From the IMG/VR virus record IMGVR_UViG_3300000059_000084: DNA of 4,413 nucleotides; one strand, 5' to 3'. Both the position numbers and the translations under genes were made by a program. This DNA comes from a virus. Taxonomy: Duplodnaviria; Heunggongvirae; Uroviricota; Caudoviricetes. Positions 92-4,413 of the stretch are shown here, one piece after another. Below the pieces are notes generated by a model. The model made no database searches. It was not told where the DNA came from and saw nothing but the letters and a program-made list of their open reading frames with translations. Position 1 is the first letter of the stretch; each line of letters opens with the position of its first letter.

Positions 92-280
92 ATGGAAACC
101 TTATTACCAAACGTTAATACGTCTGAAGGTTGTTTTGAAATTGGTGTCAGTATCAGTAACCCTGCATTTACTGAAGATGCCATTAATAAGAGAAAACACG
201 AACGGGAGTTATTAAATAAAATATGCATTCTTTCAATGCTGGCCCGTTTACGTCCGACGCAAAAAGGATACTGGCAATGA
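92..280 (+). CDS. Small hypothetical protein (62 aa from ATG 92); the frame is open back to position 2, so it could instead be the 3' end of a longer gene starting upstream of the window
   Basis: ATG at 92 is preceded by GAGGA (80-84) with a 7-nt spacer. Its TGA stop (278-280) overlaps the next ATG (277-279) in an ATGA arrangement. No recognisable motif in the translation. Confidence 0.4.
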   Translation: METLLPNVNTSEGCFEIGVSISNPAFTEDAINKRKHERELLNKICILSMLARLRPTQKGYWQ

Positions 281-468
281 ATACCACATTTGCACTTGTT
301 CTGACGGTTTTTCTTGTTTCCGGTGAACCGGTTGACATGGTTACTGGCGTATACAGCTCAATGAAAGAATGCATGGCTGCCGCAGCCGAACAGAAAATTC
401 CTGGTAACTGTTATCCGGTCGATAAAGCTATTCGCATGGATAATAACGAAATCCCGGCAGGACTTTAA
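277..468 (+). CDS. Small hypothetical protein (63 aa) with a hydrophobic N-terminal segment (MNTTFALVLTVFLVSG), probably membrane-anchored or secreted
   Basis: ATG at 277 is preceded by AAGGA (264-268) with an 8-nt spacer. The track's alternative start at 223 has no Shine-Dalgarno and would overlap the previous ORF by 58 nt, so 277 is preferred. No lipobox Cys follows the hydrophobic stretch; two Cys lie in the C-terminal half. Confidence 0.5.
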   Translation: MNTTFALVLTVFLVSGEPVDMVTGVYSSMKECMAAAAEQKIPGNCYPVDKAIRMDNNEIPAGL

Positions 469-561
469 AACAGCACCGTAACAAATATCCGGTTTCATTT
501 TTATATGCCAGCAATGGCAGGGATTTGTTCACCCTTAAATCTGTAATGAGGTTAAAACAAA

Positions 562-3021
562 ATGAGTAAAGTCTTTATTTGCGCCGCCATTCCGGACGAA
601 CAGGCAATAAAGGAAGAAGGTGCAGTTGCTGTAGCCACTGCCATAGAAGCCGGTGATGAACGGCGCGCCCGCGCAAAATTTCACTGGCAATTCCTGGAGC
701 AATATCCGGCTGCTCAGGACTGCGCTTATAAATTTCTTGTCTGCGAGGATAAACCCGGCATGGCCCGCCCTGCCCTTGATTCCTGGGATACCGATTATAT
801 GCAGGAAAACCACTGGGATGAGGAATCTGCTTCCTTTGTCCCGGTCGAACCTGAATCCGATCCGTTGAGCGTGACTTTTGACAAGCTGGCCCCTGAAGTG
901 CAGAACGCTGTCATGGTTAAGTTCGACACATGTGAAAACATCACCGTTGATATGGTGATTAGCGCACAGGAATTGTTGCAGGAAGACATGGCGACATTCG
1001 ACGGACATATCGTTGAAGCGTTGATGAAAATGCCAGAAGTTAACGCCATGTATCCGGAGCTTAAGCTGCATGCCATCGGGTGGGTTAAGCATAAATGTAA
1101 TCCAGGTGCCAAATTGCCCGAAATTCAGGCGGAGATGCGCATCTGGAAAAAACGTCGCGAAGCCGAACGCAAAGAAACCGGAAAACATACTTCCGTTGTT
1201 GATCTCGCCCGCGCCAGAGTCAACCGGCAGAACACTGAAAACTCAACAGGAAAAATCCACCCTGTCACTACCGCCATTCGTCGCGAATACAAGCAGACAT
1301 GGAAAACACCGGATGAAGAACTGGCCTACGCTTTCTGGCCTGGTGATATTGATGCCGGAAACATTGACGGCAGCATCCATCGCTGGGCAAAAAATGAAGT
1401 TATCGACAAAGATCGCGAAGACTGGAAACGTATTTCCGCATCAATGCGCAAACAGCCTGATGCCATTCGCTACGACCGTCAGACTATTTTTGGCCTTGTT
1501 CGTGAGCGTCCACTCGACATTCACAAAGATCCCGTGGCACTGAACAAATACATCACTGAATACCTGACTACAAAGGGCGTGTTTGAAGATGAAGGAACAA
1601 ATCAGAGCACAACTGATACTCTCCCGTCGCCAGTACCAGAAACTGATGCAGTGGAAACGGCAATGCCGGACAACGAAAAAACCGAATGCGAAGTGGAAAC
1701 CGAACCATCTGTAGAGCGTGAGGGGCCGTTCTATTTCCTCTTCACCGATAAGGATGGCGAAAAATACGGTCGCGCAAACAAACTTTCTGGTCTGGATAAG
1801 GCGCTGGCCTCAGGCGCAACTGAAATCACGAAAGAAGAATATTTTGCCCGCAAAAACGGTACATACTCAGGTTCACAACAAAATACTGGTGCATCTGACA
1901 CGACCGCACAACCAGAGCCGGTAAAAGTTACCGCTGACGAAGTAAACAAAATTATGCAGGCAGCCAATATCAGCCAGCCTGACGCCGATAAGTTGCTTGC
2001 TGCCTCTCGCGGAGAATTTGTTGCAGGGATTAGCGACCCGAATGATCCGAAATGGGTGAAGGGGATTGAAACCCGCGATTCAGTGAACCAGAACCAGCAA
2101 AAAGCGGAACAAAACAGCCCAAATGCGTTACAAAACGAGCCAGAAACGAAACACCCTGAACCAGTAGCGCAACAGGAACCGGAAAAAGCCTGCACTGCCT
2201 GCGGCCAGACCGGCGGCGGCAACTGTCCTGACTGTGGCGCGGTGATGGGCGACGCAACATACCAGGAAACATTCGATGAAGAGAATCAGGTTGAAGTTCA
2301 GGAAAATGATCCGGAGGAAATGGAAGGCGCTGAACATCCACACAAGGAGAATGCTGGCAGCGCTCAGGACCACGCCAGCGATAGTGAAACTGGCGAGACG
2401 GCAGATCCCTTAATTACGGTGAACAGTCATCACATTATTACATCCACCAGCAGGGTGTGGCATCACCTGATGATCGACCTTGAAACGATGGGAACTAACA
2501 GCAATGCCCCCATCGTGGTTATTGGTGCTGTGTTCTTCGATCCGCAGACTGGGGAAATCGGACCAACTTTTTATATCGTTATCAGTCTGGCTGACGCAAT
2601 GGACACAGGCGCAACCCCTGACGGTGGAACCATCGAATGGTGGCTGAAGCAGTCCAGTGAAGCCAGAGCTGCCATTTTAACAGACCAGGTAAAACTGAAG
2701 GATGCCCTTTCGCAGTTTCGGGAGTTCATCAACGAATACTCAGATGAAAAATTCGTTCAGGTATGGGGTAATGGTGCGACTTTCGATAACGCAATTTTGC
2801 GCACCTCATACGAACGTCTGGACATCCCCTGCCCGTGGCGCTACCACAACGATCGCGATGTACGCACAATCGTTGAGCTGGGAAAAACAATCGATTTTGA
2901 TGCCAGAACCGTTATTCCATTCGAAGGCGTGCGCCACAATGCGCTGGATGACGCCCGTCACCAGGCAAAATACGTTACAGCTACGATACAAAAACTGATC
3001 CCGAGTCAGGCTGATTTTTAA
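562..3021 (+). CDS. Large prophage exonuclease (819 aa): N-terminal region of unknown function, acidic low-complexity linker with a zinc ribbon, and a C-terminal DnaQ-like DEDDh 3'-5' exonuclease domain (Rv2179c-like; proteins of this kind are often annotated exodeoxyribonuclease VIII-like in prophages)
   Basis: Single uninterrupted 2460-nt ORF. ATG at 562 has GAGG at 547-550. The C-terminus carries the three DEDDh motifs in canonical order and spacing: MIDLET (D at 2476-2478, E at 2482-2484), WGNGATFDNAIL (D at 2785-2787), and HNALDD (H at 2935-2937, D at 2950-2952). Position upstream of xis-int matches the exonuclease slot of lambdoid recombination modules. Confidence 0.85.
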   Translation: MSKVFICAAIPDEQAIKEEGAVAVATAIEAGDERRARAKFHWQFLEQYPAAQDCAYKFLVCEDKPGMARPALDSWDTDYMQENHWDEESASFVPVEPESDPLSVTFDKLAPEVQNAVMVKFDTCENITVDMVISAQELLQEDMATFDGHIVEALMKMPEVNAMYPELKLHAIGWVKHKCNPGAKLPEIQAEMRIWKKRREAERKETGKHTSVVDLARARVNRQNTENSTGKIHPVTTAIRREYKQTWKTPDEELAYAFWPGDIDAGNIDGSIHRWAKNEVIDKDREDWKRISASMRKQPDAIRYDRQTIFGLVRERPLDIHKDPVALNKYITEYLTTKGVFEDEGTNQSTTDTLPSPVPETDAVETAMPDNEKTECEVETEPSVEREGPFYFLFTDKDGEKYGRANKLSGLDKALASGATEITKEEYFARKNGTYSGSQQNTGASDTTAQPEPVKVTADEVNKIMQAANISQPDADKLLAASRGEFVAGISDPNDPKWVKGIETRDSVNQNQQKAEQNSPNALQNEPETKHPEPVAQQEPEKACTACGQTGGGNCPDCGAVMGDATYQETFDEENQVEVQENDPEEMEGAEHPHKENAGSAQDHASDSETGETADPLITVNSHHIITSTSRVWHHLMIDLETMGTNSNAPIVVIGAVFFDPQTGEIGPTFYIVISLADAMDTGATPDGGTIEWWLKQSSEARAAILTDQVKLKDALSQFREFINEYSDEKFVQVWGNGATFDNAILRTSYERLDIPCPWRYHNDRDVRTIVELGKTIDFDARTVIPFEGVRHNALDDARHQAKYVTATIQKLIPSQADF
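2191..2235 (+). other. Zinc-ribbon motif C-x2-C-x7-C-x2-C (CTACGQTGGGNCPDC) inside the exonuclease linker
   Basis: Read from translation: Cys codons at 2191-2193, 2200-2202, 2224-2226 and 2233-2235, flanked by acidic low-complexity sequence. Four-Cys spacing is typical of a zinc ribbon or knuckle. Confidence 0.5.
2470..3018 (+). other. DEDDh (DnaQ-like) 3'-5' exonuclease catalytic domain, sub-feature of the 562-3021 CDS
   Basis: Exo I (D-x-E), Exo II (F-D-N) and Exo III (H-x4-D) motifs in the right order and spacing across about 180 aa. This is not the PD-(D/E)xK fold of RecE or lambda Exo. Confidence 0.8.
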
Positions 3022-3032
3022 TGTTCAACCAT

Positions 3033-3064
3033 CGCCGGTTGTGACTGGTATTCTGCAACCGGCG
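3033..3064 (+). promoter_or_regulatory. Perfect 9-bp GC-rich inverted repeat (CGCCGGTTG ... CAACCGGCG) with a 14-nt loop, in the 69-bp gap between the exonuclease stop and the xis start
   Basis: Read directly: arms at 3033-3041 and 3056-3064 are exact reverse complements, with possible G-U wobble extension at 3042/3055 and 3043/3054. No U-tract follows, so it is not a canonical intrinsic terminator. Confidence 0.4.
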
Positions 3065-3090
3065 CTCATCTGAAGTAAGAGATAAAAGCG

Positions 3091-3342
3091 ATGAGCGAAG
3101 TAATCATGATTGTCTCTCCCGGTAAATGGGTATCCGAAGAACAGCTAATTGCGCTGAAAGGAATAAAAAAGGGAACGCTAAAAAAAGCCAGGGAAAAATC
3201 GTTTATGGAAGGAAGGGAATATAAGCATGTAGCCCATGACGGTATGCCATGGGATAACAGCCCATGCTTTTACAACCTAGAAGAAATTGATCGCTGGATT
3301 GAACGTCAGGCATCAGCAAGACCAAGACGTCATCTTACTTGA
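3091..3342 (+). CDS. xis: Excisionase-like small DNA-binding protein (83 aa; putative prophage excisionase, DUF1233-like)
   Basis: Small basic protein encoded immediately upstream of, and co-oriented with, the integrase. ATG at 3091 has AAGAG about 10 nt upstream; an alternative in-frame ATG lies at 3106. Family assignment is from memory of similar prophage excisionases, not a search. Confidence 0.65.
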   Translation: MSEVIMIVSPGKWVSEEQLIALKGIKKGTLKKAREKSFMEGREYKHVAHDGMPWDNSPCFYNLEEIDRWIERQASARPRRHLT

Positions 3343-3376
3343 CTAAGAACAATACTAACCAATGAGAGAAGCTAAA

Positions 3377-4413
3377 ATGAAATATCCGACAGGCGTGGAA
3401 AACCATGGAGGGAAATTACGTATCTGGTTTGTTTATAAAGGTGTAAGAGTCAGGGAAAATCTGGGGGTTCCTGACACGACAAAAAACAGGCGCATTGCAG
3501 GTGAGCTGCGCGCCTCTGTTTGTTATGCAATAAAAACCGGCGTTTTCGACTATGCAAAACAGTTTCCCTCCTCACACAATCTGGAAAAATTTGGTGAGGC
3601 CCGACAAGATTTAACCATAAAGGAACTGGCTGAAAAATTTCTGGCACTGAAAGAAACGGAAGTCGCAAAAACGTCACTCAACACGTACCGTGCCGTCATC
3701 AAAAATATTCTGAGCATAATCGGTGAAAAAAATCTTGCCTCGTCGATTAATAAAGAAAAATTGCTGGCGGTACGTAAAGAGTTACTTACTGGATACCAGA
3801 TCCCCAAAAGTAATTATATTGTTACGCAACCGGGGAGATCGGCTGTCACCGTAAATAATTACATGACAAATCTTTACGCCGTGTTCCAGTTTGGTGTTGA
3901 TAACGGTTACCTGGCAGATAATCCGTTTAAGGGGATCTCGCCATTAAAGGAATCAAGAACCATTCCCGATCCTCTTTCACGGGAGGAATTTATCCGTCTT
4001 ATCGACGCCTGCAGAAATCAGCAGGCCAAAAATTTATGGTGTGTTTCTGTTTATACAGGCATTCGCCCTGGTGAACTGTGTGCGCTTGGGTGGGAGGACA
4101 TAGATCTGAAAAATGGAACAATGATGATCAGGAGAAATTTAGCAAAAGATCGTTTTACGGTACCGAAAACACAGGCTGGTACCAATCGGGTAATTCACCT
4201 TATCAAGCCTGCAATCGACGCTCTCAGGAGTCAGATGACACTAACGAGGCTGAGCAAAGAACATATTATTGACGTTCACCTCAGAGAGTTCGGCAGAACA
4301 GAAAAACAAAAATGCACCTTTGTTTTTCAACCTGAAGTGTCAGCGAGAGTAAAAAATTATGGTGACCATTTTACCGTTGACTCAATAAGGCAGATGTGGG
4401 ACGCAGCGATAAA
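3377..4413 (+). CDS. int: Phage tyrosine integrase, lambdoid IntR/IntS-like, 3'-truncated by the window edge (345 codons present, no stop)
   Basis: Hand translation of frame 2 from ATG 3377 (GAGAGAAG Shine-Dalgarno at 3364-3371) is open to the window end. N-terminus MKYPTGVENHGGKLRIWFVYKGVRVRE resembles the arm-binding domain of Rac-type integrases. VYTGIRPGELCALGWEDIDL carries the first conserved catalytic Arg of the tyrosine recombinase box. The HxxR and Tyr motifs would lie beyond 4413. Confidence 0.9.
   Translation, partial: MKYPTGVENHGGKLRIWFVYKGVRVRENLGVPDTTKNRRIAGELRASVCYAIKTGVFDYAKQFPSSHNLEKFGEARQDLTIKELAEKFLALKETEVAKTSLNTYRAVIKNILSIIGEKNLASSINKEKLLAVRKELLTGYQIPKSNYIVTQPGRSAVTVNNYMTNLYAVFQFGVDNGYLADNPFKGISPLKESRTIPDPLSREEFIRLIDACRNQQAKNLWCVSVYTGIRPGELCALGWEDIDLKNGTMMIRRNLAKDRFTVPKTQAGTNRVIHLIKPAIDALRSQMTLTRLSKEHIIDVHLREFGRTEKQKCTFVFQPEVSARVKNYGDHFTVDSIRQMWDAAI

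Follow-up and report, generated by a model that had tools for sequence, protein, structure and literature searches.

The subject of this analysis is a single gene in a stretch of 4,413 nucleotides (nt), hereafter the window, from the IMG/VR virus record IMGVR_UViG_3300000059_000084 (Duplodnaviria; Heunggongvirae; Uroviricota; Caudoviricetes). The window comes from a Qin-like (Qin/Tritos-type) lambdoid prophage, of which it covers the early-left region at its end next to int, and the gene, which encodes a mosaic protein of 819 amino acids (aa), lies immediately before xis and int, the slot that is occupied in the early-left operon of the Rac prophage by RecE (exonuclease VIII) and RecT. Judging by its position, the gene is probably part of the early-left operon. 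Its parts, together with one motif and one DNA signal within it, are as follows.

562..3021, plus strand: the gene analysed here, whose 819-aa product joins a RecE-family scaffold to a predicted DEDDh 3'-5' exonuclease head (open reading frame, ORF; PHROG 2082, 'exonuclease', over the full length)
562..1920, plus strand: segment A, YdfE-type N-terminal region, aa 1-453, in place of which some relatives carry a RecE-type N-terminus
1921..2414, plus strand: segment B, middle region common to Rac RecE, aa 454-618 (BLASTP, blastn, NCBIfam and model confidence, pLDDT)
2191..2235, plus strand: putative zinc ribbon, C544-x2-C547 ... C555-x2-C558 (sequence motif)
2415..3021, plus strand: segment C, predicted DEDDh 3'-5' exonuclease head of the DexA / Rv2179c-like family, aa 619-819 (Pfam PF16473; PDB phmmer)
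2444..2451, minus strand: Chi octamer (5'-GCTGGTGG-3' on the minus strand); the RecE homology ends 30 nt before it and the Pfam match of the head begins 10 nt after it

Residues 634-807 of the protein (nt 2461-2982) match the Pfam family PF16473, 'Rv2179c-like', with an E-value of 2.1e-69 and a score of 233.2 bits against a cut-off of 27, and cover positions 1-175 of the 177 in the profile; the RNase_T profile of Pfam also gives a weak match. The catalytic residues comprise D639 (2476-2478) and E641 (2482-2484) in the DLET of Exo I, D742 (2785-2787) in the WGNGATFD of Exo II, and H792 (2935-2937) and D797 (2950-2952) in the HNALDD of Exo III, and these align with D7, E9, D119, H186 and D191 of the T4 exonuclease DexA. 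Across 30 homologues, with identities down to 27%, D639, E641, D742 and D797 are invariant and H792 is nearly so. An earlier reading of the locus, made from the nucleotide sequence with no database searches (the sequence-only reading), had seen these motifs directly and had named DEDDh as the only readable catalytic domain of the gene, a view which is borne out here at all five residues. It had also considered that a profile search could place the C-terminal domain in the PD-(D/E)xK family of RecE; no PD-(D/E)xK domain was found by Pfam, by NCBIfam or by BLASTP against the nuclease domain of Rac RecE. On sequence grounds the assignment of the head as a DexA-type DEDDh domain with intact active-site residues is firm.

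As to which DEDDh enzyme the head most resembles, a phmmer search of PDB with the single sequence returned only two sequence variants of T4 DexA, with E-values of 6.8e-9 (8KEL) and 9.2e-8. A family profile built from 30 sequences added only marginal matches to DnaQ, oligoribonuclease and Cas2-DEDDh; DexA was itself included in this profile and its own score there is thus inflated. The matches to oligoribonuclease were weak in NCBIfam (E 0.0038) as well as in PDB (Orn, E 0.0025). DexA (PDB 8KEL/8KEN) falls in the same DEDDh subfamily as the head, with all five catalytic residues aligned, an identity of ~27-29% and extra loops in DexA. Rv2179c of Mycobacterium tuberculosis, the namesake of PF16473, shares the Pfam family with the head, yet it was not recovered from PDB at E<=1 by either the single-sequence or the profile search; the relation is therefore a distant one, and the RNase activity of Rv2179c should not be transferred to the head.

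T4 DexA is a 3'-5' exonuclease on both single-stranded and double-stranded DNA (Kang et al., NAR 2025, PMC12153337). The same study describes an E. coli homologue of DexA, EcD (HAK9828821.1), which cuts T4 DNA containing 5-hydroxymethylcytosine (5hmC), spares unmodified double-stranded DNA and, when carried on a plasmid, protects against T4; bacterial DexA homologues are found there mostly in Escherichia, Citrobacter and Klebsiella, and neither prophages nor a RecE-type fusion are mentioned (PMC12153337). Both DexA and EcD are stand-alone proteins of ~180-227 aa, whereas here the domain makes up the last quarter, at the C-terminus, of a protein of 819 aa. The cloning primer of EcD encodes MIDTET, which is equivalent to M637-IDLET in the window protein, and A78 of EcD falls in the column of DexA D90 with the same spacing as in the window head; on the strength of these primer residues and this spacing, as distinct from a direct alignment, EcD is probably a head-only member of the subfamily to which the window head belongs. 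By the criteria of Kang et al., the residues of the window head do not look EcD-like. W152 of DexA, which is linked to 5hmC, corresponds to H762 here and to W, Y or C in close relatives (MAFFT), and D169, also linked to 5hmC, corresponds to T776 here and to S/T/A in relatives, this column lying in a gapped loop and being less certain. The 'tetramer' aspartate, D90 in DexA and Ala in EcD, is retained as D714, and is Asp in all six aligned sequences.

The sequence-only reading had raised the possibility that the domain is directed at RNA or oligonucleotides. The present results lend this no support, as the solved relative is a DNA exonuclease, DexA, Rv2179c went undetected and the sister heads carried by the same scaffold (see below) belong to DNA recombination. 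DNA is the probable substrate, because the nearest characterised relative is a DNase, DNA is what every other head of the scaffold acts on, and Rec modules contain some of the standalone homologues; a 3'-5' polarity is presumed for the window protein.

The part of the protein in front of the head belongs with RecE. BLASTP against Rac RecE aligned aa 262-619 with RecE 278-592 (E 2e-64), the two being near-identical from aa 470 and ~85% identical over aa 470-619, zinc ribbon included, and blastn found nt 1986-2414 to be 81.6% identical to Rac recE, with homology ending at nt 2414. In the protein the homology ends at aa 618-619, where the PD-(D/E)xK domain of RecE would begin, and RecE 596-866 has no aligned part in the window protein by BLASTP. 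The NCBIfam model for RecE, NF007259, matched aa 246-619 with 276 bits against an equivalog cut-off of 1269, and only model positions 271-603 of 877 were matched. Segment B, and with it the corresponding region of Rac RecE, contains a LLAASRGEFVxGISDPNDPKWVKGI block, the CxxC...CxxC zinc ribbon and an acidic linker which is predicted to be disordered (pLDDT <50 for aa 501-540 and 565-620). The zinc ribbon is kept residue for residue in Rac RecE (CNACGQTGGDNCPDCG) and in a headless version of the scaffold in phage 75/02 Stx. The two proteins are of similar overall length (819 aa here, 866 aa in Rac), but the C-terminal PD-(D/E)xK 5'-3' double-stranded DNA exonuclease of Rac RecE is absent from the window protein, which has the DEDDh domain, presumably of opposite polarity, instead. 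The two also differ in the first ~250 aa, which are of the YdfE type here, and in what follows the gene, as recT comes after recE in Rac and no recT comes after the window gene.

Within segment A, folded units are predicted at aa 1-205 (alpha/beta and helices), 245-345 (helical) and 388-432 (a beta-hairpin and a helix). A second joint was located by comparison with DNA of the vB_EcoS-640R1 type, which matches the window at 1-566 and 1921-3065 and not at 567-1920, where it has a RecE-type N-terminus. A protein search with aa 1-340 returned mostly partial, near-identical entries from E. coli, in which the diversity of architectures is not visible. The homologues of this region (562-1581) carry precomputed matches to PF27430 and PF27432, and the Pfam-A copy used here gave no match for it; newer Pfam releases apparently define families for the N-terminal region of the scaffold.

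The sequence-only reading had described the slot of the exonuclease as filled by a DEDDh nuclease, and in this it was right; the nuclease did not, however, arrive as an unrelated newcomer, since the non-catalytic region of RecE has its homologue in aa 262-619. As far as can be judged from sequence, the gene is firmly placed as a mosaic of the recE lineage in which the head has been swapped and which has no recognisable annealase partner, recT having been lost. The exact map of the mosaic is new to this study.

An exhaustive search with aa 1-620 gave only 240 cluster representatives among 1.84 billion proteins, the head types of which were assigned by local BLAST domain probes and Pfam scans. 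The same scaffold was found with several different heads.

P0121, P0122: YdfE-type N-terminus with a DEDDh head
P0129: RecE-type N-terminus (100% identical to Rac RecE 1-280) with a DEDDh head
P0139, P0228, P0199: scaffold with the PD-(D/E)xK head of RecE
P0185: N-terminus and middle region of RecE with a RecT domain as the head (Pfam RecT, E 1.2e-42)
14 representatives: mostly YdfE-type N-terminus with 'head 3' (~265 aa, no Pfam match)

Head 3 is an annealase domain like those of Rad52/Sak with a coiled coil behind it, and the group, which had been labelled 'exonuclease', is re-assigned here as Rad52-like annealase fusions. The RecE scaffold is thus a common platform for nuclease heads of opposite polarity and for annealases, a point that this analysis adds. 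Two further forms of the scaffold were observed. P0185 (703 aa) joins a Rac-type RecE N-terminus (aa 1-280, 100%) and the middle region to RecT with no nuclease domain between, and is either a natural in-frame deletion fusion of recE and recT or an artefact of assembly or annotation. In the Shigella phage 75/02 Stx (L013:4068-6116) a scaffold of 682 aa retains the zinc ribbon and ends in a short conserved tail (WKRQLVLAAVYGLCANPA...) with no nuclease head; it lies directly upstream of a complete gam-bet-exo set, which is 79-95% identical to the lambda counterparts, and similar tails are present in P0141 and P0125. This headless scaffold may be the 'RecE-2' (RecE relatives with no nuclease domain) which is named in a survey of lambdoid phages (Zheng, Casjens, Davidson, Amundsen and Smith, Genome Res 2025, PMC12315714).

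The other genes of the window are arranged on the same strand as the 819-aa gene.

92..280, plus strand: dicB, cell-division inhibitor, 62 aa (Pfam DicB, E 3.5e-36; NCBIfam CellDivInhibDicB, E 1.8e-37)
277..468, plus strand: ydfD, DUF1482, probably 63 aa from the ATG at 277 (Pfam DUF1482, E 5.9e-23, aa 23-79 of an 81-aa ORF)
3091..3342, plus strand: xis, excisionase, DUF1233, 83 aa (Pfam E 1.6e-31; PGAP 'excisionase family protein' at the homologous locus)
3362..4413, plus strand: int, tyrosine integrase, 5' part, open beyond the end of the window (open frame from the ATG at 3362)

The two small ORFs which the sequence-only reading had seen upstream are therefore dicB and ydfD, in the order also found in a 95%-identical E. 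coli prophage (L001), in Tritos and in vB_EcoS-640R1. The mechanically called ORF of ydfD starts at an ATG at 223 (81 aa) and overlaps dicB by 58 nt. The annotated homologues (PGAP, phages) start at the ATGA of nt 277-280, with a 4-nt overlap with the dicB stop, and, as the DUF1482 match begins at residue 23, the real ydfD probably spans 277-468. An internal stop makes ydfD a pseudogene at the 95%-identical E. coli locus, where the 'site-specific integrase' begins 20 nt past xis; at loci of this identity the 819-aa gene is labelled by PGAP either 'exonuclease' or '3'-5' exoribonuclease domain-containing protein'. An antisense ORF of 217 aa (535-1188, minus strand) overlaps the 5' part of the exonuclease gene and probably owes its existence to the codon composition of that gene. 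Promoter and terminator scans of the window gave results at or below shuffle expectation, and an Rfam scan of the window returned nothing real, DicF being situated upstream of it.

In agreement with the sequence-only reading, the gene lies in the exo/recE slot directly before xis-int, and the 69 nt between its stop codon and xis are too short for any gene. The region beyond the upstream end of the window was read in relatives (the E. coli prophage L001, 95% identical; phage Evi, 91%; Tritos; HannyBb), where the order is cI ... DicF-dicB-ydfD-exo-xis-int. In these close relatives tblastn detected no RecT, Red-beta, Erf, lambda Exo, Gam, Abc2 or Rad52-like head at E<=1 beyond chance. Within 10 kb of 18 fused loci from Escherichia, Kluyvera, Citrobacter, Enterobacter and Pluralibacter, at which the xis-int order holds in 16 of the 18 (the 16 checked), tblastn found no RecT, Red-beta, Erf, lambda Exo, Gam, Abc2 or head 3. 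Because the reach of the tblastn panel was limited, Pfam scans of neighbours were added; no annealase family was found among the larger upstream ORFs at the fused loci, nor among the non-structural genes of Tritos. The absence of an annealase beside the gene, as claimed from the sequence, thus holds in the window, in Tritos and HannyBb and among 18 fused homologues of other species, and a RecT or Bet gene immediately upstream, which would have pointed to an ordinary RecE-type module, was seen neither in the window nor in its relatives; inspection of 5-10 kb upstream in the relatives likewise revealed no recT, bet or erf. What lies next to the gene varies with the type of head: recT comes after the PD-(D/E)xK heads of Rac and HK225, and xis-int, with no annealase, comes after the DEDDh heads of the window, L001, Evi, Tritos, HannyBb and 640R1. 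The doubt previously raised over a coupling of the Red/RecET type is therefore shared here, and coupled resection and annealing of this type is considered unlikely because there is no annealase. In Citrobacter youngae, ~5-7 kb upstream of the fused gene (L058:850-3131), an AAA_21/AAA_15 ATPase (476 aa) is followed by a DUF4435 protein (285 aa), a pairing that occurs in candidate anti-phage systems.

The gene is widespread. Of the complete E. coli genomes searched, 5426 in all, 2255 carried a stretch covering at least 80% of the window, many of them at ~95% identity, and the closest representatives of other species were from E. ruysiae (88%) and E. albertii (84%). It occurs in prophages of enterohaemorrhagic E. 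coli (PPompW elements, some of which adjoin Stx2a-converting phages) as well as in complete phages that form plaques or were induced, namely Tritos, HannyBb, Evi, mEp460_ev081 and PhiR42_1, and the fused architecture extends across several genera at 50-70% identity in the head. Head-only proteins (~170-300 aa) were found at 60 of 80 species-level loci, many of them just upstream of xis-int, and these homologues, up to 63% identical, are widespread well beyond the Enterobacterales. Among 145 ORFs neighbouring the standalone homologues there were 16 integrases, six DUF2303/YfdQ genes, three YfbR-like 5'-deoxynucleotidases, two single-strand DNA-binding protein (SSB) genes, two Sak4-type AAA_24 genes, one Erf (by Pfam) and one dATP/dGTP pyrophosphohydrolase, and by tblastn an Erf gene lay directly upstream of the standalone head in three loci. 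The head is thus not confined to recognisable Rec modules, although it occurs in some of them, and Zheng et al. describe the same (PMC12315714). The DUF2303/YfdQ and YfbR-like genes, frequent near standalone heads and on the same strand, hint at a link to nucleotide metabolism apart from recombination, and the standalone copy of vB_EcoM-720R4 (L005:3037-3609) lies ~1.1 kb downstream of a yfdP-yfdQ-HD hydrolase cluster in the same operon. Three loci from distant bacteria, a Veillonella parvula metagenome-assembled genome (MAG; L015), a Geobacteraceae MAG (L035) and a Chryseobacterium sp. (L061), have heads 59-71% identical to that of the window; L015 has the complete fused gene with xis-int in DNA 88-89% identical to the window, and all three are most likely artefacts of binning or contamination and not true hosts.

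The pattern to which the locus belongs has already been catalogued. In a survey of 325 lambdoid phages, the main text of Zheng et al. reports that DnaQ-like 3'-5' nucleases occur in lambdoid Rec modules, and that phages with no recombination system of their own are enriched in Chi and are proposed to use the RecBCD of the host (PMC12315714). One class of its Table 1, with Tritos as the prototype, consists of four phages, all Chi-rich, which have a nuclease and lack an annealase (single-strand annealing protein), an SSB and an anti-RecBCD function (PMC12315714). Over 4.4 kb the whole window aligns to Tritos at 88% DNA identity, and both have the order dicB-ydfD-exo-xis-int; at the protein level the scaffold of Tritos (aa 1-620) shows 85.5% identity. 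The main text of the survey does not state whether the nuclease of Tritos is of the DnaQ or the RecE type, nor does it describe a fusion to a RecE-type scaffold (PMC12315714). With the pattern catalogued in 2025 and the family named in databases, the window gene represents an uncharacterised variant rather than a system of a new kind.

The Chi octamer listed above is in the active orientation, one copy in the window against 0.04 expected per strand. Its position at the junction is kept in L001, L002, L006, L010, L012, L014-L016 and L064, with either type of N-terminus, while copies of the gene in Kluyvera, Citrobacter and Enterobacter have Chi elsewhere in the gene and not at the junction; a junction Chi was accordingly rejected as a general feature of the family, being kept only in the Escherichia lineage. 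Across the fused genes, 26 Chi sites are antisense, which is the active orientation, and five are sense. At the level of whole phages, Tritos has nine Chi sites on the top strand and two on the bottom (0.86 expected per strand) and HannyBb five and two (~0.85 expected per strand).

In the window and in the complete relatives, the 819-aa gene is the only Rec-module gene of the element. Our preferred reading, which is offered tentatively and at a little less than an even chance, is that it encodes an exonuclease acting on the 3' ends of DNA, the phage relying for strand exchange on RecBCD and RecA of the host. The head would remove nucleotides from free 3'-OH ends of DNA by two-metal catalysis, with D639, E641, D742 and D797 binding Mg2+ and H792 acting as the general base, and the scaffold would bring it to the same context of DNA ends or partners as it may do for the RecE nuclease, RecT and the Rad52-like sister heads. 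Strand exchange would be left to RecBCD-RecA, at the Chi sites of the phage itself, because there is no annealase, no inhibitor of RecBCD and a large number of correctly oriented Chi sites. The nuclease would not then be a maker of 3' tails for annealing; it would most likely trim 3' tails or ends, for example to the blunt ends on which RecBCD loads, or process intermediates of recombination or replication. The idea of end-blunting draws on work on the single-strand exonucleases of the host in recBCD+ recombination. A bolder proposal, which we regard as unlikely, is that the N-terminal and middle regions of RecE are an exchangeable delivery platform for effectors of DNA ends (a 5'-3' nuclease, a 3'-5' nuclease, a Rad52-like annealase, RecT, or none beside gam-bet-exo), of which the DEDDh form would be the annealase-independent one, trimming 3' ends for RecBCD at the Chi sites of the phage.

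Several points should be set against the reading of the gene as a DNA 3'-end exonuclease that works with RecBCD. The sequence of a DEDDh domain does not tell whether it acts on DNA or on RNA, and the family in which Pfam places the head takes its name from an exoribonuclease. The model of the scaffold had no informative structural neighbour, so that its targeting role is pure inference on our part, and the cooperation with RecBCD is likewise something that we infer. The exact protein is not in the assembly index, and the upstream region was therefore read in relatives; the tblastn panel was weakly sensitive, as the RecT annotated in HK225 went undetected with the Rac RecT probe; and two non-structural proteins of Tritos (356 aa and 204 aa) have no Pfam match. 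In addition, the main text of Zheng et al. notes sporadic DnaQ-type genes near int outside recognisable Rec modules, and therefore adjacency to xis-int may not imply a role in recombination; it also notes that the 3'-5' DNA exonucleases of the host usually inhibit homologous recombination, and a pro-recombination role is therefore not obvious (PMC12315714).

Other explanations lead in different directions. Were the head an exclusion nuclease (HREX/EcD-like), it would degrade the modified DNA, e.g., with 5hmC, of superinfecting T-even phages and so protect the lysogen or the infected cell. The activity of EcD on 5hmC-containing T4 DNA and the protection it gives from a plasmid (PMC12153337) are in keeping with this, as are the likeness of its MIDTET to M637-IDLET, the shared spacing to A78/D90 and the large overlap between the genera of the DexA homologues and those in which fused or standalone heads occur in prophage-like contexts. 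EcD is, however, a putative relative of the window head, and the change of W152 to H762 and of D169 to T776 and the retention of the 'tetramer' Asp as D714 do not fit; a gene in a repressed early-left operon, as the position of this one suggests, would moreover be silent in the lysogen, and PADLOC matched no defence system or anti-defence family in the window protein, only a generic CRISPR-associated DEDDh model at 1e-6. We consider exclusion of this kind unlikely. Scavenging of nucleotides, in which DNA fragments or oligonucleotides would be converted to deoxynucleoside monophosphates for replication of the phage with no part in recombination, has a precedent in the breakdown of host DNA by DexA in T4 (PMC12153337). 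The YfbR-like (3), DUF2303/YfdQ (6) and dATP/dGTP pyrophosphohydrolase (1) genes among the 145 ORFs beside standalone heads, and the vB_EcoM-720R4 copy that shares an operon with a yfdP-yfdQ-HD hydrolase cluster, would suit it, but none of these nucleotide-metabolism genes was seen among the examined neighbours of the fused loci, and the fused form sits on a scaffold which is otherwise tied to recombination heads. We know of no lambdoid phage that degrades the DNA of its host, and scavenging too seems improbable.

The possibility, raised by the sequence-only reading, that the protein trims 3' ends of RNA or oligoribonucleotides, or degrades a linear nucleotide signal as a form of anti-defence, fares less well still and is considered very doubtful. 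Many DEDDh enzymes are RNases, the family bears the name of the M. tuberculosis exoribonuclease and there are the weak matches to oligoribonuclease profiles (NCBIfam E 0.0038, PDB Orn E 0.0025). Rv2179c, however, escaped even the 30-sequence profile at E<=1 when DexA was found with a single sequence, all other heads of the scaffold act on DNA, and some standalone homologues adjoin genes for Erf, Sak4-type AAA_24 and SSB. The anti-defence variant has found no positive support, as no known anti-defence family was matched and the residues linked to 5hmC are not conserved, and it is left as a possibility only. Finally, the gene might be a functionless relic, the outcome of a recombination accident in defective prophages that has been kept with no selection. 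In favour of this are the internal stop of ydfD in the 95%-identical E. coli locus, insertion sequences in some relatives, mosaic joints of a sort typical of lambdoid shuffling and, presumably, only a truncated ydfE in the Qin prophage of E. coli K-12. Against this, the ORF is intact over 819 codons, four of the five active-site residues (D639, E641, D742, D797) are invariant and H792 nearly so down to 27% identity, the fused form is found across genera (50-70% head identity) and in viable complete phages, and a stretch covering 80% or more of the window is carried by 2255 of the 5426 complete E. coli genomes; a relic is therefore highly improbable.

RecE-RecT and Red are the workhorses of recombineering, and yet, to our knowledge, the large N-terminal part of RecE has had no known function since RecE was described. 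The sole effect reported for it is that full-length RecE boosts linear-linear recombination (PMC11611040). A scaffold which is found with nucleases of opposite polarity, with annealases or with nothing should have a binding target that is common to all of them. The DEDDh version is very common, and belongs to a Chi-rich class of lambdoid phages which seemingly depend on the RecBCD of the host; if the bolder proposal is true, it would be a phage nuclease that cooperates with RecBCD, as opposed to bypassing or inhibiting it. Should the nuclease condition ends for RecBCD, or else exclude competing phages, this could suggest new parts for recombineering and would bear on the exchange of genes, those for toxins included, between prophages.

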